Positions 310 through 64,000 of a stretch of 64,000 bases of DNA are shown here, one piece after another (the stretch's first letter is position 1; each line of letters starts with the position of its first letter). The position numbers and the translations under genes were made by a program. The notes under the pieces were generated by a model. It ran no database searches, was not told where the DNA came from, and worked only from the letters and a program-made list of their open reading frames with translations. Location: IMG/VR virus record IMGVR_UViG_3300027754_000055, positions 45,653 to 109,652 of that record. One strand, 5' to 3'. This DNA comes from a virus.

Positions 310-855
310 TCAAACCATTTTTGAAACTGGTGTTTTGCTCCAAAAACGGCAAGACCAATATTTTGGCGTTGTGCGATCTTTAGCTTGGCTACATTTATGT
401 CTTGCACGGAATGATTTACGACGTTTTGGATCTTGACGCTTGATACGCATGTTTGGATCACCAAAATTTACTTTTTTGATGTTTCCTGTTTTGGGATCTT
501 TAACAAACACTTTGTATTTTTTTACATCGCCCTTGGAAGGTTTTCCAACGGACACTTCTTTACCTTTATATTTTGCTTCTTGTAAAATACTAACATGCTC
601 ATTCATGTAAGCTACAAGACATCCCTCACAAACAGCTTCCCCTGTTTCATCAAGGCTGGCTCCAAGCTCTAGAATTTCTGTTTCTTCATTTTCAGGCTCA
701 TCTGATCCAAATATTAAATTTTTACCATGAAATTTTTTCTTTGGTTCACCGTGAATACTTTTTTCATGCTCATGATCATGTTTTTCACTTGAATATTCTA
801 ATTCATGAATGGATTCAAGAATTGCTAGAATCAAATTTTCTTTTGAGTTTTTCAT
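310..855 (-). CDS. conserved large-phage protein with a basic C-terminal domain (KKYKVFVKDPKTG..VNFGDP..RRKSFRARH..YWSC); probable virion protein
   Basis: C-terminal motif typical of T4-like/giant virus hypothetical proteins; acidic/His-rich leader ending ILQE; TACTTA motif at 880-885 (minus strand). Confidence 0.7.
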   Translation of the reverse strand: MKNSKENLILAILESIHELEYSSEKHDHEHEKSIHGEPKKKFHGKNLIFGSDEPENEETEILELGASLDETGEAVCEGCLVAYMNEHVSILQEAKYKGKEVSVGKPSKGDVKKYKVFVKDPKTGNIKKVNFGDPNMRIKRQDPKRRKSFRARHKCSQAKDRTTPKYWSCRFWSKTPVSKMV

Positions 856-954
856 ATTTTACCTACTGTTGATTATCAATAAGTACTGAATCGTGTTTTA
901 TTTTCATGAGCCAAATTTACGTTTCAATTCATGAATAGCTGATAACCGATTAGA

Positions 955-1305
955 TTATTTTGAAGATTTTTTTGTTTGTTTTACCGCAACAGAAGGTGCT
1001 TCAACTGAGTCAACAACAGGATCAGCCACAGGAGCTTCTAGAACGGGCTGTGCGGGCTCTGAAATTGTTTCCACAGGGACAATTACATCTGGTGTTTTTG
1101 TATCCTCTACAGCAGCCACAGAAGTGCTTTGGGCTAATACCTGTGGAGCAGCAAGTTTAAGTTCTAATTCAGATACTCTATCAGTTAATGCCTTTATTAC
1201 TGATAAAAGGTCAACACCTTGTACAGTCATTGGCACCGTGACATCAAGCGACGGACTACCGTATGGGTAAGTTGCACAGCCATTATGATCTATTAATGTT
1301 TTCAT
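955..1305 (-). CDS. hypothetical protein with a low-complexity Pro/Ala/Val C-terminus
   Basis: 116-aa ORF with an AAAGGA RBS. Confidence 0.65.
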   Translation of the reverse strand: MKTLIDHNGCATYPYGSPSLDVTVPMTVQGVDLLSVIKALTDRVSELELKLAAPQVLAQSTSVAAVEDTKTPDVIVPVETISEPAQPVLEAPVADPVVDSVEAPSVAVKQTKKSSK

Positions 1306-27843: not shown

Positions 27844-27977
27844 TTCAGTATTAAATATTCTATTTATTGATATAATCAAAATGGTTTTATTGATTGGAAA
27901 ATTGTACGAAATTAATGTTAAGAAATCATATTCATTCTATGCCTCAAAGAATAAATTTTTTGCATTTAGTCAATTAC

Positions 27978-29117
27978 TCACAGGACAAGCCTGTGAGCTT
28001 GTAAATCAGTTGCCCGATTCACGTCTGGGTGTTTGACTTCACCCTGTTCCAAAGTTTTATTTGGAAATAGTTGTTCGGAAATATAACGATCCCTTATATT
28101 AATTGCTGCATTTATATCCGAATTAATTAATAATTTACATCTTGAACAATTGTAAAGACCTTTGTTCCTTGCTTGCTTATCAATCATTCCGCAACAAGAG
28201 CAAATCTGTGAAGTAAATCTAGCATCTACGAAGTTTATCTTTACTCCACTTGCTTCTGCTTTATATTTTAAAAGCATTTCAAATTGTTTAAATCCCCAGT
28301 TTGAAACTACTTTATTTGATTTTTTGTTATATTTCTTGCTTTTTATTTTTGTTAAATTCTCTAAAACATAAATGGAAACATCAGGATCATTTGCTAGCTT
28401 TTTAGCTAGACAATGGAGAAAATTATTGCTAAACCGCTTCTCTTTTCCGCTTAATGCTTTTAATAGCCTTTTAGCAGAATGAGTGCCTTTTGCTTGTAAT
28501 TTACTTTTTAAATACAAATGTTTTCTTTTATTTTTTCTTAACGATTTACCAGAATACAATTCTCCTTCACTGGTTGCTATCGTATTTATAATTCCTCGAT
28601 CTAATCCAACAGTTTTACCTGCTGCTCTGTTTGAAGTTTCTTTATTCTCAAACAAAAAAGTAAAATATAATTCTTTCCCTTTCAAGGAAAGATATCCTGT
28701 CTTTAAAAGATTCCAACTTTTAAAATAATCTTTCGAATAATCAGATAATTTTATGATTGTTTTAATTCTTTTATTAACAGAAGAAATGGTTAATTGCTCT
28801 CCTCTTAAAGTAAAAGTTCTTTGATCATATCTTATCGAACTTGTTTGCTTCTTTTTGGGAATATGTTTCTTTCTTTTATTTTTACAAGACTCAAGAGCCA
28901 TGTCTCTTGCAGCTTGGATCAAAGCAGTTGGTAATTCGAAAGTTTCTTTTGCTTGGATATATGTTTCTTTGTGTGCTTTGAGCTTTGAGGTTGAATTATT
29001 TTGAATGCTCCAAGCAGAATAGAAATTAAAAACATTAGCGAATGTTTCCATTGTTTTTAATAATGTATTTTTATCATTCTCTGAAATGTTGAGTTTGATT
29101 TTAATAGCTCTTCGCAT
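27978..29117 (-). CDS. tnpB: RNA-guided endonuclease TnpB
   Basis: RuvC GLDRG / VLENL / NSDINAA and zinc finger CSCCG..CSRC; the ORF runs into the right-end hairpin. Confidence 0.92.
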   Translation of the reverse strand: MRRAIKIKLNISENDKNTLLKTMETFANVFNFYSAWSIQNNSTSKLKAHKETYIQAKETFELPTALIQAARDMALESCKNKRKKHIPKKKQTSSIRYDQRTFTLRGEQLTISSVNKRIKTIIKLSDYSKDYFKSWNLLKTGYLSLKGKELYFTFLFENKETSNRAAGKTVGLDRGIINTIATSEGELYSGKSLRKNKRKHLYLKSKLQAKGTHSAKRLLKALSGKEKRFSNNFLHCLAKKLANDPDVSIYVLENLTKIKSKKYNKKSNKVVSNWGFKQFEMLLKYKAEASGVKINFVDARFTSQICSCCGMIDKQARNKGLYNCSRCKLLINSDINAAINIRDRYISEQLFPNKTLEQGEVKHPDVNRATDLQAHRLVL

Positions 29118-29136
29118 ATTTATAAGTATTAGCAAC

Positions 29137-29547
29137 ATGGAAAAAACTACAAATAATCATACAACTCACATTCTTGGCTTTCATATTATTTTTTGTCCAA
29201 AATATAGAAGCATGCTTTCCGAAGGTCATTGTATTGCTTTGAGAAAATGTTTTTATGAAATAGCAGAAGAATATGATTGGAAAATAGAAAGTTTAGAAGT
29301 TGACTTGGATCATGTAAACTTATTTATCCAAGCGAACCCTACAGATAGTCCGGCTGATATTGCCAGAACATTTAAAAGCATATCAGCTATATTTTTATTT
29401 ACAAAATTTCCCAAATTAAAGGAAAGAAAGTTTTGGGGTTCTGGTCTATGGTCGAGAGGGACATATTATTCAACTGTTGGCAAGGTTGCAGAAGACGTTG
29501 TAAGGAATTATATTGAATCGCATTCATCTCACAGGACGAGCCTGTGA
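29137..29547 (+). CDS. tnpA: IS200-family Y1 transposase TnpA (HUH motif altered to HVN)
   Basis: FHIIFCPKYR, DHVNLFI, LWSRGTYYSTVG, catalytic YIE. Confidence 0.9.
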   Translation: MEKTTNNHTTHILGFHIIFCPKYRSMLSEGHCIALRKCFYEIAEEYDWKIESLEVDLDHVNLFIQANPTDSPADIARTFKSISAIFLFTKFPKLKERKFWGSGLWSRGTYYSTVGKVAEDVVRNYIESHSSHRTSL

Positions 29548-29760
29548 GTTTTCTGCTCATATCAATAAAAATCTAATCATTTTATTTGATAGCGGAACCA
29601 TTGGATTATATCTCGGTAGCACAAACGAACAAATTTTTGAAAGTGAAGAACCAGATCATATTTTTCTGATATCTGATAAAATTATTCATTTTTCATATTT
29701 TTTCCATGAGCATGTTAATTTCGTTCTTGTATCTGGACAAAATGTAAAAAATATTATCAT

Positions 29761-30520: not shown

Positions 30521-30660
30521 GTGAACTACTCACAGGACAAGCCTGTGAGCTTCTAAAGAGTTTATCTCTAGAACTTTAAGCACTTCATCGGAAATTTCCA
30601 AGTTTGCACTTGGTTTTATATTTCCTCCATGCTCGTAATCGTTCGTTCCGAACGATCTAT
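30521..30660 (-). ncRNA. omega-RNA (reRNA) scaffold overlapping the tnpB 3' end
   Basis: Stacked hairpins (ATCGTTCG/CGAACGAT, CCAAGT/ACTTGG, right-end hairpin), conserved in the copy at 52936-53075; predicted guide CTGGATTTAACGAATTTGGT. Confidence 0.7.
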
Positions 30661-31780
30661 CAACAAGGTTTAAGCCTTGCTTAAGAATATTTTTTGATGC
30701 ATTCCAATCCCTCTGTTGAACTACTCCGCAACCTTTGCAAATCCATTCTCTGTCCTTGAGTTTTAGATTTTGGTTGATGTAGCCACAGTCCGAACAAGTT
30801 TTAGAACTTGGAAAAAATCTATCAACTTTGATTAATGTTCTTCCGTACCACTTGCACTTATATTCTAACAAATTAACAAAACTACTCCAAGAACTGTCTT
30901 GAATGGCTTTTGATAATTTATAGTTTTTCAACATGTTTTTAATACTTAAATCTTCTATACAAATCACTTGGTTTTCGTGAACTAATTTCGAAGAAAGTTT
31001 ATGCTGAAAATCTTTTCGGAGATTGGTAATTCTTTCGTGAATTTTTGCTACTTTTAGCTTTTGTTTTTTTCTTCTATTTGAACCTTTCAATTTTCTTGAA
31101 AGATATTGCTGTTGTTTCTTTAGTTGGTTTGAATGCTTAACAAGATATTTTGGATTCGATATCTCTTCTCCATTAGACAAAAAAGCGAAACTCTTGATTC
31201 CAAGATCAACTCCAACAGCATTGTTTATTTTTGGTAAGTTATGAATGGTTTCTTCTACAGAAATAGAAACAAAATACTTGTTGGTTGGTGTTTTGGTAAT
31301 GGTTGAAGTTGTGATCCTGCCTTTGATTGGTCTGTGCTGTTTAATTTTAATTCCGGTTTTAAACTTTGGAATATGGAGCATTCCATTTTCGATTGAAAGG
31401 CTTTGCGGAATACAAATAGATTGTTTTCCAAATTTCTTTTTGAAATTTGGAAAACCACTTTGCTTTTTGAAAAATCTTTTGTAAGCAATATCTAGATTTT
31501 TAAGTGCTACTTGAAGGCTTTGTGAGTTTGCATCTTTTAAAAATTTAGTTTCTGGGTTTTGCTTTAAAAGAGTTAAAGCTTTTGCATTATCAAAATAAGA
31601 AAGAAAATTTTTTGTTCTTTCTTCTTCGATTTTTTCTTTATTTTTTAGAAAATGTTCTTTTTCTTTATTGAGAAAATAATTCCAAACAAAACGAGAACAT
31701 CCAAACATTTTAGCAAACAAATTTTGCTGTTCTGTGTTTGGATAGATTCTAAATTGGTATGTTTTGTTTTGCAGAACCAT
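30530..31780 (-). CDS. tnpB: RNA-guided endonuclease TnpB
   Basis: N-terminal YQFRIYPN..FGCSRFVWN HTH, RuvC GVDLG / CIEDL / QRDWNAS, zinc finger CSDCG..CKGCG. Confidence 0.95.
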   Translation of the reverse strand: MVLQNKTYQFRIYPNTEQQNLFAKMFGCSRFVWNYFLNKEKEHFLKNKEKIEEERTKNFLSYFDNAKALTLLKQNPETKFLKDANSQSLQVALKNLDIAYKRFFKKQSGFPNFKKKFGKQSICIPQSLSIENGMLHIPKFKTGIKIKQHRPIKGRITTSTITKTPTNKYFVSISVEETIHNLPKINNAVGVDLGIKSFAFLSNGEEISNPKYLVKHSNQLKKQQQYLSRKLKGSNRRKKQKLKVAKIHERITNLRKDFQHKLSSKLVHENQVICIEDLSIKNMLKNYKLSKAIQDSSWSSFVNLLEYKCKWYGRTLIKVDRFFPSSKTCSDCGYINQNLKLKDREWICKGCGVVQQRDWNASKNILKQGLNLVDRSFGTNDYEHGGNIKPSANLEISDEVLKVLEINSLEAHRLVL

Positions 31781-31877
31781 TTACTTTATACCTAATATTA
31801 AGTATGGTGTAAATTTATTTTTCTATATGAATCGCATTCATCCCACAGGACGAGCCTGTGGGTTTTCTGCTCATGCA

Positions 31878-32165
31878 ATAAAAACTGAAATCCGGCACAA
31901 ATGCACTTATTTGGATAATTTTCTTGATCCTTTTACGTGGAATAGAATCAGCAACAAAGAAATGGTTTGCTGATTTCTCTTGCATATTGATGCCTTCCAT
32001 GTCTATTACAACAATAGAAAGATTCTGATGTTTTTCCATTAGCCGTGGATCTTCCAATATCTCTTCCATTGCGACTCCAATAGAGTTTGTAAGTTTAGCT
32101 TGTGGATATATGCCAGCTGTCGTCAGCAATAAACCGGGGTTATTTGTAACATGATAATAGATCAT
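31878..32165 (-). CDS. ART/Tpt1-like small protein; 3' end interrupted by the IS
   Basis: YYHVT..GIYP..LT..A..IVVID..IP..I pattern; the ORF reads into the IS left end (stop at 31815); pre-insertion end reconstructs as ..FSFYLDLTNLVN*. Confidence 0.5.
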
Positions 32166-45161: not shown

Positions 45162-46207
45162 TTATTCTTTGTTTATAGATCGTGCTTTTGCCCAGTAGCC
45201 CCGTGGCGGTTTGGATATATTATAACTTTTACACCATTTCTCCACAGCTTTATCTGATACATTATATTCCTTTGCGATTTGAATCGTTGGTTTTTCCCAG
45301 ATTAATTTTTCTAATTGATCCTTTGTTGGTCTTTCGATTTTTCTTGCGCTGTTATGAGAGCAATCATAAGAACAATATTTATAATCATGTAATGTTTTTC
45401 TTGCAAAGGGTTTATTACACTTTAAACAAGTAAAAAAATATTCTTTTATCATTTTTTTATTATTTTCTGTTAAATTCAACAGTAATACTTTTTTCTTTTT
45501 TCTTTTTAATGGCTTACATTTTTTACAGTATTTATGTGCTGATGATAGCAACATAAATTTTTCATTGCAAATGATACAGTTTTTTTCATTTTCTAATTTT
45601 ATAAATTTTATATTATTGCAAATAGGTTTTGTTTTTAGAAAGGAAATTAGCTCAGTAATTTTTTTTTATTAAAGATCCAAATATATTTTATCTCTAATAC
45701 ATCCCACCCTTGTTTGATAAATTCTTCTCTTCTTTTTAGACAATAGGGTTTTAGATTCTCTGTGCCTGATTCATAGTGTTGGTTTCCATTTACTTCTATT
45801 ATTAGATTAAATTGAGGAAAAACTATGTCTGGTGAGAAAAATCTATCAGGAATTAAATTAGGAATTTCTTCTTGGAAGAAAATACCTTCTTCTAATAGTT
45901 TTTGTTTTAATTTTTCACAGGGTATAGATTTATTATACTTATGATATTTCCATGGATGTTTATCAGGATTTTCTTTTAGAAATTTTTTTCTTTTATTTGA
46001 TATGATCGCTCTAATTTCGGCTGTGTAAATAGGTCTAGAAATAAAATGAGATGTATCTAAATTTAATTTTTTTATACATTCAGTACAGCTTTTTCTTGCA
46101 GAACTCGCAGTTTTATTATAACCGAATTTATTTAAAACATCAATATAAGAAATTGATGAAGCTACGGCTTCACGTAATTTGGTTTCTTCGAAAATATATT
46201 TTTTCAT
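45162..46207 (-). CDS. DUF559/Vsr-like PD-(D/E)XK homing-type endonuclease with C-terminal Zn/HTH domains, split by a frameshift at an A9 run
   Basis: FSPDIVF..IIEVNGNQH in 45647-46207; one extra A at 45659-45667 fuses it in frame to 45162-45554 (CxxC, YCSYDC, IAKEYNVSDKAVEKWCK). Confidence 0.75.
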
Positions 46208-48387: not shown

Positions 48388-48619
48388 GTTGACTTTATTA
48401 TATTTGAATGCGGTAGGTATTTTTGGTATTTCAATAACTTTTTGATCATCAGTGCCACAGACGACTCTTCAAGAATTTTCTCCAATTGGTTTAAATCTAA
48501 AATTTTATTACATGAGCAAAAAACCCACGGGTTCATCCTGTGAGTAGTTCGCTTGGAAACAACCAATCTCGTATGTTTGCGAACATACTATCTTCATAAA
48601 GGATATTGACTAGTGACAT
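48354..48619 (-). pseudogene. hypothetical gene interrupted by a 44-bp IS remnant
   Basis: Removing 48509-48552 restores MSLVNILYEDSMFANIRDWLFP-N-KILDLNQLEK... Confidence 0.6.
48509..48552 (+). mobile_element. 44-bp single-hairpin left-end/right-end hybrid of the IS200/IS605 family
   Basis: TTTAT|TACATGAGCAAAAAACCCACGGGTTCATCCTGTGAGTAGTTCGC: left-end start joined to right-end tail through one hairpin. Confidence 0.75.
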
Positions 48620-50111: not shown

Positions 50112-50136
50112 GAATAATAAGTAGCATAAAATAAAA

Positions 50137-51373: not shown

Positions 51374-51636
51374 TTTTCATCTTCCTCTTGTATGCTAAGA
51401 GTTAGGATATCGCCAATAACTTCATGAATGTCCTGCCGCATAATTAAAGACAATGCCTCATCTTCGTCTATAGGATGACCAAGTTCGCTAGAAACACTAC
51501 GAATAAACTTCTTCATACCAGATAGAAGAATGTTTCTGGCGGTTGCGTGATTCATTTTATATCCTAAATCAGTCATCTTAGCGGCAATTGTGCGATAGTC
51601 TTCACCTTCAGTTATAGTTATATATTTGTTATTCAT
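51328..51636 (-). CDS. sigma region 4.2-like HTH protein
   Basis: EGEDYRTIAAKM...NHATARNILLSGMKKF; ATGA-coupled to the sigma gene. Confidence 0.55.
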   Translation of the reverse strand: MNNKYITITEGEDYRTIAAKMTDLGYKMNHATARNILLSGMKKFIRSVSSELGHPIDEDEALSLIMRQDIHEVIGDILTLSIQEEDEKCQQVNQTVNQPHQT

Positions 51637-52379
51637 TTACTTGTTTCACTTTCCATTTTTATAATTTTATCACTTTCGAAGCCATACCGTTGCAACAAGA
51701 TGTGTTTTTCTCTTGTGCTTAGCTCTTTAAATGCCTTAACGCTTGCCAAGATTATTTTCTTTTTATCAAAACCAAGTGAAAAATCCGAAGTATCGCTTGG
51801 TATAATATCTCTTAGGGATTTATTAGCACTGTCGCCAGATGAAGAAATTGGCATATCTAGACAAATATGATTCCAGGTTTTAGTTTTATTTGCAGCTTCG
51901 ATCGAAGCAAACATTTTTTCTGTCATCCCGATTTCTTCGAGAGTTTCTTTGGAAATATCTCTAACTAGGATTGATCTCTCTTTTGCTAAATTTTCTAATT
52001 TATTTCTTGCTGTTCGGATATGAGACGGAATATGAAAGATAGGCTCTTCGTCCAATAAATAAGAGTTTACACTTTGACGAATCCACCAAGTAGCATAAGT
52101 TGAAAACTTAAAACCAAGTTCTGGTTTATAACCATCGATAGCATCGAACAATCCAAGATGGCCTTCTTGCAGTAAATCATTGCGTAATGTCTTGTGTTTT
52201 GGCTTTTTGCTATAAAATTTATTAATAACGAATGTAACAAGCTTTGCATTTCTTTGCGCTAAATCATTACGAATTTTTTGGTTAGAAGTAATAAGTTTAC
52301 CTTCCTCGCTAAGAACCTTGGTTGTTTGATAGAATTTAAATAAATCTATATCATCTATCGTTGCTTCTTTTTCTTTCAT
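51633..52379 (-). CDS. RNA polymerase sigma-70-family factor lacking the region 4.2 HTH
   Basis: Region 2 NAKLV..DLLQEGHLGLFDAIDGY..GFKFSTYATWWIRQ; region 3 LDMPI; ends LSTREKHILLQRYG. Confidence 0.88.
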   Translation of the reverse strand: MKEKEATIDDIDLFKFYQTTKVLSEEGKLITSNQKIRNDLAQRNAKLVTFVINKFYSKKPKHKTLRNDLLQEGHLGLFDAIDGYKPELGFKFSTYATWWIRQSVNSYLLDEEPIFHIPSHIRTARNKLENLAKERSILVRDISKETLEEIGMTEKMFASIEAANKTKTWNHICLDMPISSSGDSANKSLRDIIPSDTSDFSLGFDKKKIILASVKAFKELSTREKHILLQRYGFESDKIIKMESETSK

Positions 52380-52470
52380 AAAATCTCCTTATACAAATCA
52401 TAACACATTCTTTTTTAAAATCAAGTGTTTTACAAATATTATTTTTCTTCCTATTATTATATCATAAACT

Positions 52471-52794
52471 ATGATAAAATTACCAGAAGAAAGAAAAATA
52501 CAAGACGTAAGAAATGTCCCATTAGAAGTGGGAAAATTATATGAATATGTCTGTAAATGGCAAAGACCAATGATGCAGAAACCAAGGGGAAAATATATTT
52601 CAACTTGGTCAAACTCTATGGTATCCCCCGGTGAAACTTTTATGATTATAGAAAAATTACCGAGAACAATATCATATGTTAAAATCTGCGTAATAGCAAC
52701 AGGAAGAATAGGCTGGATTTATACTGGGTTCACTAATGGTTCTTGGCAATGCCGCAGTGATTCACTATCCGATATAATGAAAAAATTAATATGA
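52471..52794 (+). CDS. SH3-like paralogue
   Basis: LEVGKLYE ... YVKICVIATGRIGWI. Confidence 0.65.
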   Translation: MIKLPEERKIQDVRNVPLEVGKLYEYVCKWQRPMMQKPRGKYISTWSNSMVSPGETFMIIEKLPRTISYVKICVIATGRIGWIYTGFTNGSWQCRSDSLSDIMKKLI

Positions 52795-53231
52795 TTGATC
52801 AAAAAGATTATTGCCATTGCTGCAATAAGTTACCAGAAGAAGGAAATATAATCCTGCCTTCTTCTGGTATCCTTCGTGGCAAAGAAAAAACTAAATTTAC
52901 TGGTATGATCATTGTTAAAAACAGACCCATTTGTGGTGAACTACTCACAGGACAAGCCTATGAGCTTCTAAAGAGTTTGTCTCTAGAACTTTAAGCACTT
53001 CACCGAAAATTACCGCTGGCAAGCCAGTTGGTTTTATATTCTCTCCATGCTCGTAATCGTTCGTTCCAAACGATATCGGAAAAATTAATTGCTCCGATAA
53101 TTTTAATTATTATGCAAAATATGTTTTTGTTTAAATTATTTTAAATTGAATCGCATTCATCCCACAGGACGAGCCTGTGGGTTTTCTGCTCATGCAATAA
53201 ATGCAATAGATATTTTGAATTTTTCTATTGA
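52791..53231 (+). pseudogene. zinc-finger gene interrupted by the non-autonomous element
   Basis: Joining 52935 to 53197 gives MIDQKDYCHCC...RPIC-D-KCNRYFEFFY*, restoring the second CxxC. Confidence 0.8.
52936..53196 (-). mobile_element. 261-bp non-autonomous IS200/IS605 derivative carrying an omega-RNA
   Basis: Left end matches 31829-31877; right ~140 bp homologous to 30521-30660; TTTAT target; no internal ORF. Confidence 0.9.
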
Positions 53232-56123
53232 TTACCTAAACATCCACCAGAACTCTTTTTTCAATTCTGAATCAAATTTCACCGCATTTTTATTAACGCC
53301 ATGAGGCAATTTTTTACCTTGAAATTTATTTTCTATATCCTTATAGCCCCTGCTCATACCAGCCAATAAAGAATTAGCCATAGTTTGATTCGCAGCCATC
53401 ATCCCAAGATATCCTTGCTGGGCAGCACTTGGTGTAAAAATCTGCAAACCAACACCCATTGCCAAAATAAGATCATCATGGCGTTTTTTCAATGCCTGCC
53501 CACGCTTACCATTCCAGATAAATGTTTCCATTTGCTCAACAAATCTAAGAGAATAAATCTTTATCTGATGATTGCGGATAACTTGCTCTAGATTCTCAAG
53601 TATAGGCTCTCTGTTTTTTGATGTGATCGTAAAACCGGGTAGAATATCCTTCTTCTCATCCGGCGTCATGCCTACCATCTTCTCTGCCAAATCTGGATCG
53701 TAGTATACGTTTTTATATTCTGAGTCTCTTAGCTTGATTGCTGTGGCGATCCCTACTGTATTTTTTTCATTTACGATCAGTGCATCATTGTATTTTTTAC
53801 CAATTTCAATCAAAAATTCACCAAATCTATCTGGTGCAATTTTACCCATATATTCTGCGACCACTTCGCTTTCATTGGTATCAAATATATGGAAAGTGGA
53901 ATAATCTTCTGCATCTCCTCTAGCGACATCGGCGGCAATAACATATTTATGCTCAGGGATTGGAGTCTTCCAGATATGCATGTCATTGCCTTTGCCATTA
54001 GGACCAGCATATCCAATTGGAGGATATGATAGGTTTCTTACATAGTCAATATCTGCTTGAGAAAAGAAAGTTAACGCCGAACTTTCGAAGGAACAATTAT
54101 GAACGACCAATCCATTAACAATATATGAATGGTCTTCTTCAACCTCTATATTGTAAACGATGGGGCATTTTTCCTTATCAAATCGTTTGTATTGTATATT
54201 GCCAATGATTTCATCATTAATTAATTTTGTACGGCTACCGGATTTCTCTAATGATGTTTTATTTGTCTGCAATGCCTCAAGTATAGTAGGAGATGGTAAT
54301 AGGTCAACTCCATCTATTTCATAGTATCCAGTTTTATAATTTATTCTACCATAATGGCCGAATGCCGCCAATAATATTTTAATTTGGCTAAGCAACTTCG
54401 GAGATCGTGTTACTACCTTTATTTTTTTACCAAAATTATTAGATGAAGCAGCCTCCAAATGATCGCCATCACCATCAAAGTGACCAACTAAATAACCCTT
54501 AATGAAATCGATATTTGTAGATAAAAAAGTGTCAAATTTCAGGTATTTTTTTGTTGCATCTCCTGCGTTTACAAAATTCCTATAAAGCTCAATAATATAT
54601 TTGTTGCTGGTATGGACCGTAAAACACTTACTATATGATCTAATATTTACACAATATTTTACACCAAGTTTATCATAGAAGTCTGTTATAAATTTTCCAA
54701 GAGTATCTAGTTCGTTGGTATGAAAAGCTAACTGTAGATTTTCTGTTAATGCACGACCCTTTGAATAATTTTTATTAACACATCCTTCAGCTACACACAA
54801 ACCAATATACCTACCAAGGTCAAAATCAACATCTACCATTCGGTTTATCGTTTCGGAGCGTTGCCTCCAGTAGCTAATTTTACCATCTGGCATCATTTTC
54901 TTCTTTTGAACATCAAAGGACCATAAATCGATTTTATCCGTAATTTTTCCAATGATATTATTAATATAATTTGCTGGCTGAAGTGAAGAAAAAAATCTAT
55001 CGGCATATGTTTTCTGAAATTTATCAATCTCATCAAGAGAATAAAAATCAGATTTAATACCTTCGTCTATTATCTTTTTCCATGGCGATACAGTAGAAGT
55101 GCAATGAAATTTTTTACCATACAAAGGATGATTTCCTGTAATCAAAAGGTCTTCTTCTCTATTGCATGGCACTGAGACTTGATACACGTTTTCTTCTTGG
55201 TCTACTAGCCTAGACCCTACATTTATTACTGGTTTAAATCTTCCTTTATGAGTAAGTACCATGTCCCCAATGGAGATATCACTGGCAAATTTAAACCCAT
55301 CAAATGTCTGAATACGAGACTGTGGCCCAACACATAATAATTCCTGAGCTATTCCCTGGGAAGACATAGCTCTTGATTCTTCCTCAAACCATTTATCATC
55401 ACGCTCTGGGTGCACCGTCCATGGTAATTTTATTCCGTGGAATCCATTTTTCCCTACAGAAGTACAATGTAAGCCAATTTTATCTTTTTCATATTCATTG
55501 GTATCTGCGCCCATCCATAATTGATAAAAGAAATTTTTACCTTTTGGAGATGAGAACATGATTGCTCGACCGCCAGTGCTAAGCGTTGGTTTTAAACCAA
55601 GCCATAACTCTTCTAAGTTTTCAATATGAGCACATTCGTCTATCACGAGAAGCGTAACCGCTGATGAGCGACCCGCATCGGCAGAGGTTGGGATTGCAGT
55701 TATTCTTGAGCCATTATTGAATTTGATATATTTTACAGATTCTGCTTCAGGCTCTGTGAGGTCCAACATATTGAGCATCCAAGCTGGTAACATTTTGAAT
55801 GCTGTGCGTATTTTTTGAATCATTGCTTTACCAACTTCTAGTTTGGTAGCCATGATCAAAATTTCGGCATCTCTACGAAACAATGCCATCCACAAGCAAT
55901 ATGCTGAAGTGGTAGTTGATAAACCAAGCTGACGACCTTTTACTACTATATTAAATCGATAGTTTAAAAAATCATCAATGCATTGCTCTTGAAATTTATA
56001 AAGTTCAAAAGGCAAACGTCCTTTTGTTGGGTGCTGGATATAGAGGTATTTTTTAATGAAATACATTGGTTCTTCACCGCATTTCATTATTTCGTCAACT
56101 TGCTCTTTTTTATTTAACGCCAT
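53232..56123 (-). CDS. terL: terminase large subunit (T4 gp17-like) with intein
   Basis: LYKFQ, KGRQLGLST, LVIDECAH, SSPKG, nuclease AADVARG..DYS, NEKN, HDDLILA. Confidence 0.92.
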   Translation of the reverse strand: MALNKKEQVDEIMKCGEEPMYFIKKYLYIQHPTKGRLPFELYKFQEQCIDDFLNYRFNIVVKGRQLGLSTTTSAYCLWMALFRRDAEILIMATKLEVGKAMIQKIRTAFKMLPAWMLNMLDLTEPEAESVKYIKFNNGSRITAIPTSADAGRSSAVTLLVIDECAHIENLEELWLGLKPTLSTGGRAIMFSSPKGKNFFYQLWMGADTNEYEKDKIGLHCTSVGKNGFHGIKLPWTVHPERDDKWFEEESRAMSSQGIAQELLCVGPQSRIQTFDGFKFASDISIGDMVLTHKGRFKPVINVGSRLVDQEENVYQVSVPCNREEDLLITGNHPLYGKKFHCTSTVSPWKKIIDEGIKSDFYSLDEIDKFQKTYADRFFSSLQPANYINNIIGKITDKIDLWSFDVQKKKMMPDGKISYWRQRSETINRMVDVDFDLGRYIGLCVAEGCVNKNYSKGRALTENLQLAFHTNELDTLGKFITDFYDKLGVKYCVNIRSYSKCFTVHTSNKYIIELYRNFVNAGDATKKYLKFDTFLSTNIDFIKGYLVGHFDGDGDHLEAASSNNFGKKIKVVTRSPKLLSQIKILLAAFGHYGRINYKTGYYEIDGVDLLPSPTILEALQTNKTSLEKSGSRTKLINDEIIGNIQYKRFDKEKCPIVYNIEVEEDHSYIVNGLVVHNCSFESSALTFFSQADIDYVRNLSYPPIGYAGPNGKGNDMHIWKTPIPEHKYVIAADVARGDAEDYSTFHIFDTNESEVVAEYMGKIAPDRFGEFLIEIGKKYNDALIVNEKNTVGIATAIKLRDSEYKNVYYDPDLAEKMVGMTPDEKKDILPGFTITSKNREPILENLEQVIRNHQIKIYSLRFVEQMETFIWNGKRGQALKKRHDDLILAMGVGLQIFTPSAAQQGYLGMMAANQTMANSLLAGMSRGYKDIENKFQGKKLPHGVNKNAVKFDSELKKEFWWMFR
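54096..55334 (-). mobile_element. intein with LAGLIDADG endonuclease (413 aa) in TerL
   Basis: QELL|CVGPQS, block B ITGNHP, IGLCVAEG and LVGHFDGDG, VYNIEVEEDHSYIVNGLVVHN|CSF. Confidence 0.92.
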
Positions 56124-63878: not shown

Positions 63879-64000
63879 TTGCATGAGCAGGAAACCCACA
63901 CCCTCGTGGTGTGGGAGGAATGCGAATCAATAATTTCATACATTGAAGTTTTTTCAAAAAAGATACATACTTATCTGTATGCCAAGCATAACGTACAATA
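63879..64000 (+). mobile_element. left end of another IS200/IS605-family element (truncated by the window); probable tnpB start at 63979
   Basis: TTCAT|TTGCATGAGCAGGAAACCCACACCCTCGTGGTGTGGGAGGAATGCGAATC is homologous to the other left ends; TACTTA-N5-ATG (MPSITYN). Confidence 0.75.

Follow-up and report, generated by a model that had tools for sequence, protein, structure and literature searches.

A gene-less IS200/IS605 element of a freshwater phage carries a structurally conserved, predicted TnpB omega-RNA scaffold

Bacterial and archaeal chromosomes are known to harbor gene-less elements of the IS200/IS605 type with an omega-RNA, and use of this RNA in trans by TnpB has been proposed; to our knowledge, such use has hardly been tested. 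Such palindrome-associated transposable elements (PATEs) have been described in Haloquadratum (PMC3119063) and in Geobacillus stearothermophilus (Meers et al. 2023, PMC10055086), and according to the Discussion of the latter study PATEs often encode omega-RNAs, which are necessarily used in trans. The concept as such is already known. In this study, we analyzed a gene-less mini-element of 261 bp at positions 52936-53196 (minus strand) of a phage DNA stretch of 64,000 nucleotides, i.e. positions 45,653 to 109,652 of the IMG/VR record IMGVR_UViG_3300027754_000055; this whole stretch is termed the window. Particular here are the spread of the family among freshwater phages, often near homing elements, a mature scaffold that has been retained exactly, and the conserved block preceding it. 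The best explanation, which we hold with a probability of about 60%, is a PATE with a whole, foldable omega-RNA scaffold that is expressed and used by a TnpB protein of 416 amino acids (aa) encoded in the same window.

The mini-element has a left end (LE) and a right end (RE) of the IS200/IS605 type. Its coordinates, the presence of both ends and the absence of a gene had been proposed in a sequence-only reading, i.e. an earlier annotation made from the letters alone, and were borne out by alignment and by the list of open reading frames (ORFs). The ORFs of at least 30 aa touching the element are one of 38 aa inside it and frames crossing its edges, all of them short and unsupported, and the coding remnant found by tblastn is a 41-codon tnpB tail (residues 376-416). 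On the minus strand, TTTAT is followed by TGCATGAGCAG at the left boundary, and the right boundary lies between GAGTAGTTCAC and the flanking CACAAATGGG. The first 54 nt are 98% identical to the LE of the tnpB-only element of the window (31824-31877) and 98-100% identical to the LEs of the tnpB elements compared. The right part (52936-53074) is 88% identical to 30521-30656 over 136-141 nt, in agreement with the homology of about 140 bp to the tnpB 3' end and right end that had been noticed before. The end hairpins also match those of the element of the window carrying both tnpA and tnpB, and neither of the two end-hairpin patterns was matched in any of 100 shuffles. The following parts can be distinguished, with alignment columns referring to the eight full-length copies:

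53197-53201, minus strand: TTTAT, TnpA target and predicted TnpB transposon-associated motif (TAM), directly 5' of the LE
53147-53196, minus strand: LE with the subterminal hairpin CCCACAGG-CTCG-TCCTGTGGG at 53161-53181; 6 of 50 columns variable
53129-53146, minus strand: variable linker from the LE to the conserved block; 9 of 18 columns variable
53102-53128, minus strand: A/T block of 27 nt, specific to the mini-element, candidate promoter; 2 of 27 columns variable
53098-53101, minus strand: short linker; 4 of 4 columns variable
53075-53098, minus strand: extra hairpin ATCGGA(G)-loop-(T)TCCGAT, specific to the mini-element and abutting the scaffold; 2 of 24 columns variable
52936-53074, minus strand: predicted omega-RNA scaffold of 139 nt, based on a covariance model (R1), pairing and compensatory changes
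52916-52935, minus strand: predicted guide CACAAATGGGTCTGTTTTTA, flanking DNA 3' of the RE, different in every copy

By exact-pattern scans of IMG/VR and of JGI metagenome contigs, the same element (259-261 bp, 92-96% identical) was found at nine distinct sites with unrelated flanks, i.e. in the window and at L001 (= L007), L003 (= L013), L004 (= L010), L005, L006 (= L012), L009, L011 and L014. TTTAT stands directly before the LE at 9/9 sites, no repeat is present on the RE side, and the sequence directly after ...GTTCAC differs in all nine copies. Because the same element occurs at nine different sites and always after TTTAT, its mobility is well supported. With ends homologous to those of complete elements, no enzyme gene, oriented insertion without target duplication and multiple unrelated loci, it is a PATE, i.e. 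a non-autonomous miniature IS200/IS605 element. The contigs bearing copies come from freshwater samples, and the neighbors are phage genes: copies lie after a tail sheath gene, beside an HNH endonuclease gene, inside a GIY-YIG gene and, in the window, next to a terminase gene. In L011, the mini-element (793-1051, minus strand) interrupts the 3' end of the gene for a GIY-YIG homing endonuclease (324-911, plus strand), to which it is antisense. Two copy-bearing contigs (65-86 kb), about 24% complete by CheckV, may represent large phages. Two mini-elements and one tnpB element are present together on a related contig; within the window there is one mini-element of this kind. The GenBank phage collection yielded no DNA match for the mini-element or its region, the neighboring 107-aa gene used as synteny query had no match in IMG/VR, and no tnpA was found in G001 or G002, both of which are fragments.

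In the window, the mini-element splits a zinc-ribbon gene of the plus strand into two parts:

52791-52935, plus strand: 5' part of the zinc-ribbon gene (CxxC ... CxxC), which now reads into the RE to 52994 (67 aa)
53197-53231, plus strand: 3' remainder (-DKCNRYFEFFY*), matching the C-termini of the homologues P0001 and P0002

Joining 52935 to 53197 gives ...NRPIC-DKCNRYFEFFY*, and the 67-aa frame thereby becomes a 59-aa CxxC...CxxC protein ending in NRPICDKCNRYFEFFY. When this restored protein was used as database query, P0001, P0002 and, as a third cluster, the interrupted 67-aa form were obtained. The uninterrupted P0001 (59 aa, 83% identical) ends in exactly the restored C-terminus, and that of P0002 (57 aa, 88% identical), also uninterrupted, is nearly the same (KLICDICNRYFEFFY). 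The element sits at TTTAT and these C-termini confirm that the gene is restored on excision, both as had been suggested from the sequence; TTTAT at the empty sites of P0001 and P0002 is deduced from the D-K codons alone. A degenerate DNA pattern for the empty site had no match in IMG/VR. The predicted TnpB target in the element-free allele is TTTAT followed by CACAAATGGGTCTG....

The restored stop codon (53229-53231) adjoins that of the convergent large terminase gene (53232-56123, minus strand), in which an intein with a LAGLIDADG homing endonuclease domain is recognizable (Pfam Terminase_6N, LAGLIDADG_3, Intein_splicing).

The interruption could itself have a regulatory function, by truncating the zinc-ribbon protein, by terminating plus-strand transcription at the LE hairpin and T-run, or by providing an antisense RNA against the zinc-ribbon gene. 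The interrupted 67-aa allele has lost the second CxxC and comprises 23 member sequences on three contigs, and the LE hairpin, read on the plus strand, precedes TTTTCTGCTC and has a terminator-like score. The same element stands, however, in unrelated contexts (tail sheath, HNH, GIY-YIG) with no common host function apparent, and uninterrupted alleles persist in relatives, so that we consider a host-regulatory role highly improbable.

The evidence for a constrained RNA structure comes from an alignment of eight mini-element copies with three tnpB-linked right ends. The structure tested has 51 pairs, which are formed by the extra hairpin 5' of the scaffold and the following scaffold stems, all read on the minus strand:

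53056-53074, minus strand: S1, loop GGAAC
53047-53052 with 52993-52998, minus strand: S2a
53038-53043 with 53005-53010, minus strand: S2b
53013-53031, minus strand: apical stem
52966-52988, minus strand: S3
52943-52965, minus strand: S4, the RE hairpin
52936-52942, minus strand: tail AGUUCAC, the 3' end of the scaffold

In this alignment, 95.5% of the cells are paired compared to 35-48% in controls with slid partners, and changes on both sides of a pair were found for eight pairs (21 cells) compared to 0-1 in the slid controls. None of 500 shuffles reached the observed paired percentage, the count of double-change cells or the covariation score, and the scaffold folds with a minimum free energy of -50.4 kcal/mol (z -2.5). 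The substitutions are therefore not random with respect to base pairing, a check which the sequence-only reading itself had set. Homology between the mini-element and the tnpB copy starts at the foot of S1, and the two scaffolds differ most in the apical stem, which is rebuilt from CCAAGT-GCAA-ACTTGG in the tnpB copy to CC-AA-CTGG-CTTG-CCAG-C-GG in the mini-element. Both stem differences quoted earlier are real, i.e. this replacement by CTGG-CTTG-CCAG and a C -> T change giving G-U in ATCGTTTG/CGAACGAT; the latter is present only in the window copy and L011, and the other copies keep C. The two private C -> T changes of the window copy both yield G-U. S2b reads GGAAAT/ATTTCC in the tnpB copy and GAGAAT/ATTTTC in the mini-element, including a change from G-C to A-U. 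Among the mini-element copies, the loop-closing pair of the apical stem switches between C-G and U-A, and double-sided changes affect three pairs in S3, which is TTCTAGAGA/TCTTTAGAA in most copies and TTCCTGAA/TTCAGGAA in L011 and L014, and two pairs in S4, which are swapped in L009, L011 and L014. The 6-bp stem of the extra hairpin is kept in all copies, one A -> G change leaving G-U and the other variation lying at the loop end. The tail UUC is complementary to GAA of the S1 loop; both are invariant, hence there is no covariation by which this pseudoknot could be assessed. A pseudoknot covariation with the second tnpB (UUG/CAA) was rejected, as the 5' alignment of the model there falls on NAAINI codons.

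The covariance model R1 was built from S1-S4. It scores 196.7 bits for the mini-element and 178.2 bits for the tnpB-linked copy of the window, 30.6 bits for the right end of the second tnpB of the window, and 49, 47, 34, 30 and 20 bits for the 3' ends of distant tnpB genes with 40-50% protein identity. In these distant genes S1, S2a and S3 are kept with different, covarying sequences, and since R1 fits them, the scaffold can be assigned to the omega-RNAs of the ISDra2-like TnpB clade. The extra hairpin is not conserved at the equivalent place in the distant tnpB genes. A hairpin upstream of the scaffold in the tnpB copy (GCAAGG..CCTTGT) was considered as its equivalent and rejected, as the distant relatives have no hairpin there and the scaffold directly follows the RuvC-III codons. 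Searches against Rfam gave no family at gathering score, and matches at E values up to 10 were at chance level (best 22 bits against a cutoff of 60). Judged from pairing and covariation, the mini-element keeps a whole, structurally conserved TnpB omega-RNA scaffold, whose structure is well supported as being under constraint.

A simpler view is that of an inert hitch-hiker, i.e. a deletion derivative movable by TnpA whose scaffold was kept by recency and a chance deletion endpoint and is neither expressed nor used. The identity of 92-96% among the copies leaves little time for decay, a 43-nt derivative in the window (48510-48552) has no scaffold and thus illustrates that deletions of many sizes arise, one copy-bearing contig contains neither tnpB nor tnpA, and the contigs from RNA libraries described below do not demonstrate a transcript. 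Against it stand the double-sided pair changes in S2b, S3 and the apical closing pair, none of which TnpA needs. Right ends of the IS608 type, as known from IS608 and ISDra2 biochemistry, require no more than the hairpin plus about 10-20 surrounding nt. The mini-element has retained 139 nt beginning exactly at the first stem of the scaffold, it is this scaffold-bearing form that occupies nine sites, and the variable positions are concentrated in two short linkers. An inert element therefore seems rather doubtful to us.

Upstream of the scaffold, about 70 nt between the LE and S1 are missing from the tnpB element; they include the hexamer TAATTA (53104-53109) and the hairpin ATCGGA..TCCGAT, both of which had been recognized as specific to the mini-element. 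In the A/T block and the hairpin 4/51 columns are variable compared to 13/22 in the adjoining linkers, and conservation of the block points to constraint on its sequence, for whatever purpose. The block may make the mini-element an independent transcription unit. For evaluation of promoter motifs, 81 crude gene calls were used and occurrences within 40 nt upstream of starts were counted. The hexamer TAATTA, an AT palindrome, has 29 sites in the 64 kb, most of them within genes, and it occurs upstream of starts in 5/58 strand-counts, which is comparable to TATAAT (8/120) and to the reverse complement of TANTTA. As there is no enrichment before genes beyond the AT-rich background, and as two copies read CAATTA at this position, the assignment of TAATTA as a phage late promoter is not supported. 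TANTTA precedes 20 genes versus 11 for its reverse complement, a signal that is due to TACTTA. The A/T block also overlaps a sigma70-like match (TTTAAA-18-AATAAT, 53135-53106), but such matches were found twice with 2.7 expected.

TACTTA was clearly enriched before starts, with 7 of 22 occurrences within 40 nt, four of them as TACTTA-N5-6-ATG. Its sites include 29123-29128 (minus), 31799-31804 (minus), 37341 (plus), 50118-50123 (minus) and 63968 (plus), among them those of both tnpB genes and of a probable third, and it could be a phage promoter giving mRNAs with a short leader or none. The mini-element is separated by about 560 nt (52379 to 52936) from a gene for a sigma-70 family protein (51633-52379, minus strand; Sigma70_r2, E 5e-11), and the promoter specificity of this phage protein bears on any promoter call in the genome.

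Alternatively, the scaffold could be expressed passively within the 3' untranslated region of the terminase mRNA or of mRNAs of other upstream genes, with no internal promoter and with the A/T block and hairpin serving, e.g., transposition, RNA stability or as a TnpB processing site. The terminase gene is co-oriented with the mini-element and ends 35 nt before the LE with no terminator-like site of the minus strand in between, so that read-through is an equally good expression route for the window copy, and about five of the nine copies are co-oriented with an upstream gene. In known systems omega-RNA is released from longer transcripts by TnpB, which reportedly (Nety et al., 2023) cuts it out of them. 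5' processing of omega-RNA has also been reported (PMC10097598). The sigma70-like match, being no better than chance, favors passive expression as well. On the other hand, an orientation antisense to the neighbors is seen for four or five of the nine copies, and read-through is therefore not a general answer; moreover, the block is conserved across the would-be promoter spacer, 5-30 nt before the hairpin. We regard passive expression as possible. It appears unlikely to us that the element is an autonomous guide gene, equipped with a promoter and a 5' hairpin, that adds targets to one phage TnpB for retention, homing or exclusion of co-infecting PATE-free relatives at dispersed loci; if true, it would be an RNA-guided counterpart of T4 seg/mob and a natural link from a transposon nuclease with one guide to a system with several.

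Four public runs were examined with respect to expression, all contigs being from other samples and RNA-library data possibly containing DNA. One metatranscriptome contig of 68 nt matches 53005-53072 with no mismatch, including the apical stem specific to the mini-element, and shows presence in an RNA library only, not transcription. The summed word depth in metatranscriptome X18 is 116-262 over 52928-53059 and 1-3 in the flanks, falling locally to zero; the corresponding values for the DNA run X1 are 230-688 over the element region versus 24-25. The RNA-library contig specific to the mini-element has a depth of 60 and an LE contig one of 7. These depths fit a scaffold RNA accumulating from near 53100 but are not counted as evidence, as contig depths across samples cannot rank the parts of a locus.

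The proteins that could act on the mini-element in trans are encoded by two further elements of the window:

30521-31877, minus strand: tnpB-only insertion element with tnpB at 30530-31780 (416 aa), scaffold at 30521-30656 and LE at 31824-31877; presumed source of the nuclease
27969-29564, minus strand: IS605-type element with tnpA at 29086-29547 (plus strand) and a second tnpB at 27978-29138 (minus strand, 386 aa); candidate mobilizer in trans

The 416-aa TnpB is intact, with the Pfam domains OrfB_IS605, Cas12f1-like_TNB and HTH_OrfB and the D-E-D motifs, and its element is flanked by TTTAT (31878-31882) at a distance of 21 kb from the mini-element. A tnpB in a phage is not unusual, as TnpB homologues are common in the GenBank phage collection (436 records, all below 60% identity). 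The IS605-type element has near-identical end hairpins and the same target TTTAT (29565-29569); its tnpA product matches Y1_Tnp (E 2e-28), and the 3' end of the gene is encoded by the LE hairpin.

Further IS200/IS605-related sequences were observed. In the 43-nt 'nano' element mentioned above (48510-48552, plus strand; TTTAT at 48505-48509), the 5' half of an LE is fused to an RE tail (...GTGAGTAGTTCGC); it forms a single hairpin with three mismatches at the junction and resembles the product of a deletion from the LE hairpin to the RE hairpin. In DNA run X1, one contig joins 52972 to 53141, skipping 168 nt, which may reflect a further deletion derivative or crossed paths of the assembly graph. 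The LE of a third IS200/IS605 family with the hairpin CCCACACC...GGTGTGGG is located at 63879-64000 (plus strand) and cut by the end of the window. An ORF-less element of about 355 bp in L075 (about 790-1148, minus strand) combines an LE of this third type with a right end that is distinct but resembles an omega-RNA (R1 32.6 bits); therefore, a second guide-only family exists in these phages.

On this basis, the following course of events can be proposed. The mini-element would go back to a tnpB-only element of the ISDra2-like kind that lost the whole sequence from the LE up to the first omega-RNA stem, and it would be mobilized in trans by a Y1 transposase, one of which is encoded at 29086-29547, with insertion 3' of TTTAT. 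A minus-strand transcript would start in the A/T block at about 53100-53130 or arise by read-through from the terminase gene, be trimmed to the scaffold plus about 16-20 nt of flank, and be bound by the 416-aa TnpB from 30530-31780. By analogy to the ISDra2/ISGst model (PMC10097598, PMC10055086), 52916-52935 would serve as flank-derived guide. The complex would cut element-free copies of the zinc-ribbon gene (TTTAT followed by CACAAATGGG...), either after excision by TnpA or in a co-infecting relative, and recombinational repair would restore the element or copy it in. That TnpB would employ the RNA in trans against the zinc-ribbon allele lacking the element is plausible because the scaffold is intact and structurally conserved and the cognate TnpB is encoded 21 kb away, and it follows the established TnpA/TnpB model (PMC10055086). 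Of the interpretation given in the sequence-only reading, the protein-free IS200/IS605 derivative, the whole scaffold, the changes respecting pairing and the intact cognate tnpB in the window thus remain, and the TAATTA late promoter is not supported.

Several points weigh against an expressed and used omega-RNA. The copies are young, and part of the conservation is due to recency. Pair-breaking changes are present in L004 (apical stem) and L009 (S4), the variants of S3 and S4 could originate from recombination with tnpB-linked right ends instead of selection within the PATE lineage, and S4 doubles as the DNA hairpin needed by TnpA, so that its covariation cannot separate RNA from DNA. Transcription, its strand and 5' end, loading and cleavage are predicted, as is the RNA role of the scaffold. 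In the four runs no contig contained the 52935/53197 joint of an empty site, contigs dropping rare variants. The PATE-bearing contig with neither tnpB nor tnpA has 86.5 kb and is about 24% complete by CheckV. The TnpA of the window reads H-V-N for HUH (DHIHLF in solved relatives) and YIESH for YIEEQ, i.e. it has either a variant metal site or is an inactive enzyme.

The locus provides a clean natural case for use of an omega-RNA in trans, with a 261-bp cassette, a precisely retained, covarying scaffold, many independent insertions, a known empty-site sequence and a cognate nuclease of the ISDra2-like kind encoded by the phage itself. As a co-infecting phage genome can supply the sister copy for repair, the element could act as an RNA-guided homing cassette that biases inheritance of its neighbors, e.g. 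the terminase gene. In addition, one TnpB with two diverged omega-RNAs and the TAM TTTAT forms a natural pair for gauging the tolerance of TnpB towards scaffold divergence.

In comparison with known PATEs, the present family is likewise gene-less, has hairpin ends in common with tnpA/tnpB elements, is presumably mobilized in trans and has on the RE side an omega-RNA that would need a foreign TnpB. In contrast to them, it is carried by freshwater phages whose genomes contain tail sheath and terminase genes, and a conserved A/T block of 27 nt and a hairpin, both peculiar to it, separate its LE from the scaffold. In the collections searched it is also more numerous than its tnpB-linked relatives, with nine sites versus three tnpB-linked right ends and two further close tnpB genes cut at contig ends.

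The 416-aa TnpB matches ISDra2 TnpB of Deinococcus radiodurans (8H1J, 8BF8/8EX9) over residues 2-392 with an E value of about 1e-77 (3.5e-77 to 8H1J). The mature ISDra2 scaffold comprises 116 nt from stem 1, upstream RNA being dispensable; stem 3b is disordered and deletable; the nucleotides -5U to -3C, flanked by -6G and -2A, form a pseudoknot with the loop of stem 1; and the scaffold overlaps the dispensable C-terminal tail of TnpB (PMC10097598). Similarly, the present scaffold overlaps codons of the C-terminal tail (residues 376-416), it has a 23-nt hairpin at -30 to -8 followed by a tail with -6G, -5U, -3C and -2A that can pair with the S1 loop GGAAC, and its stems are nested as stems 2, 3a and 3b are. 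It differs by the TAM TTTAT (TTGAT in ISDra2), by a length of 136-139 nt instead of 116 nt, by the extra covarying hairpin S3 and by a stem 1 in the form of a compact hairpin. Based on stem mapping, not on a structure, the apical stem would correspond to ISDra2 stem 3b. If this mapping holds, no more than the mature scaffold is retained in the mini-element, whose RNA would differ from that of the resident tnpB only where TnpB should not care.

Co-infecting phages have already been listed as targets of transposon homing in a 2026 review (PMC13565253). As in the case of Seg/Mob of T-even phages and of 'transposon non-restorative homing' (PMC13565253), a phage-borne nuclease could cut the element-lacking allele of a co-infecting relative and thereby spread the element together with its flanks, and, as in the homing setting of T-even phages, the insertion sites are next to or within other selfish genes (intein-bearing terminase, HNH, GIY-YIG). 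Unlike Seg/Mob, recognition would be by RNA, and the cassette specifying the target is physically apart from the nuclease gene.

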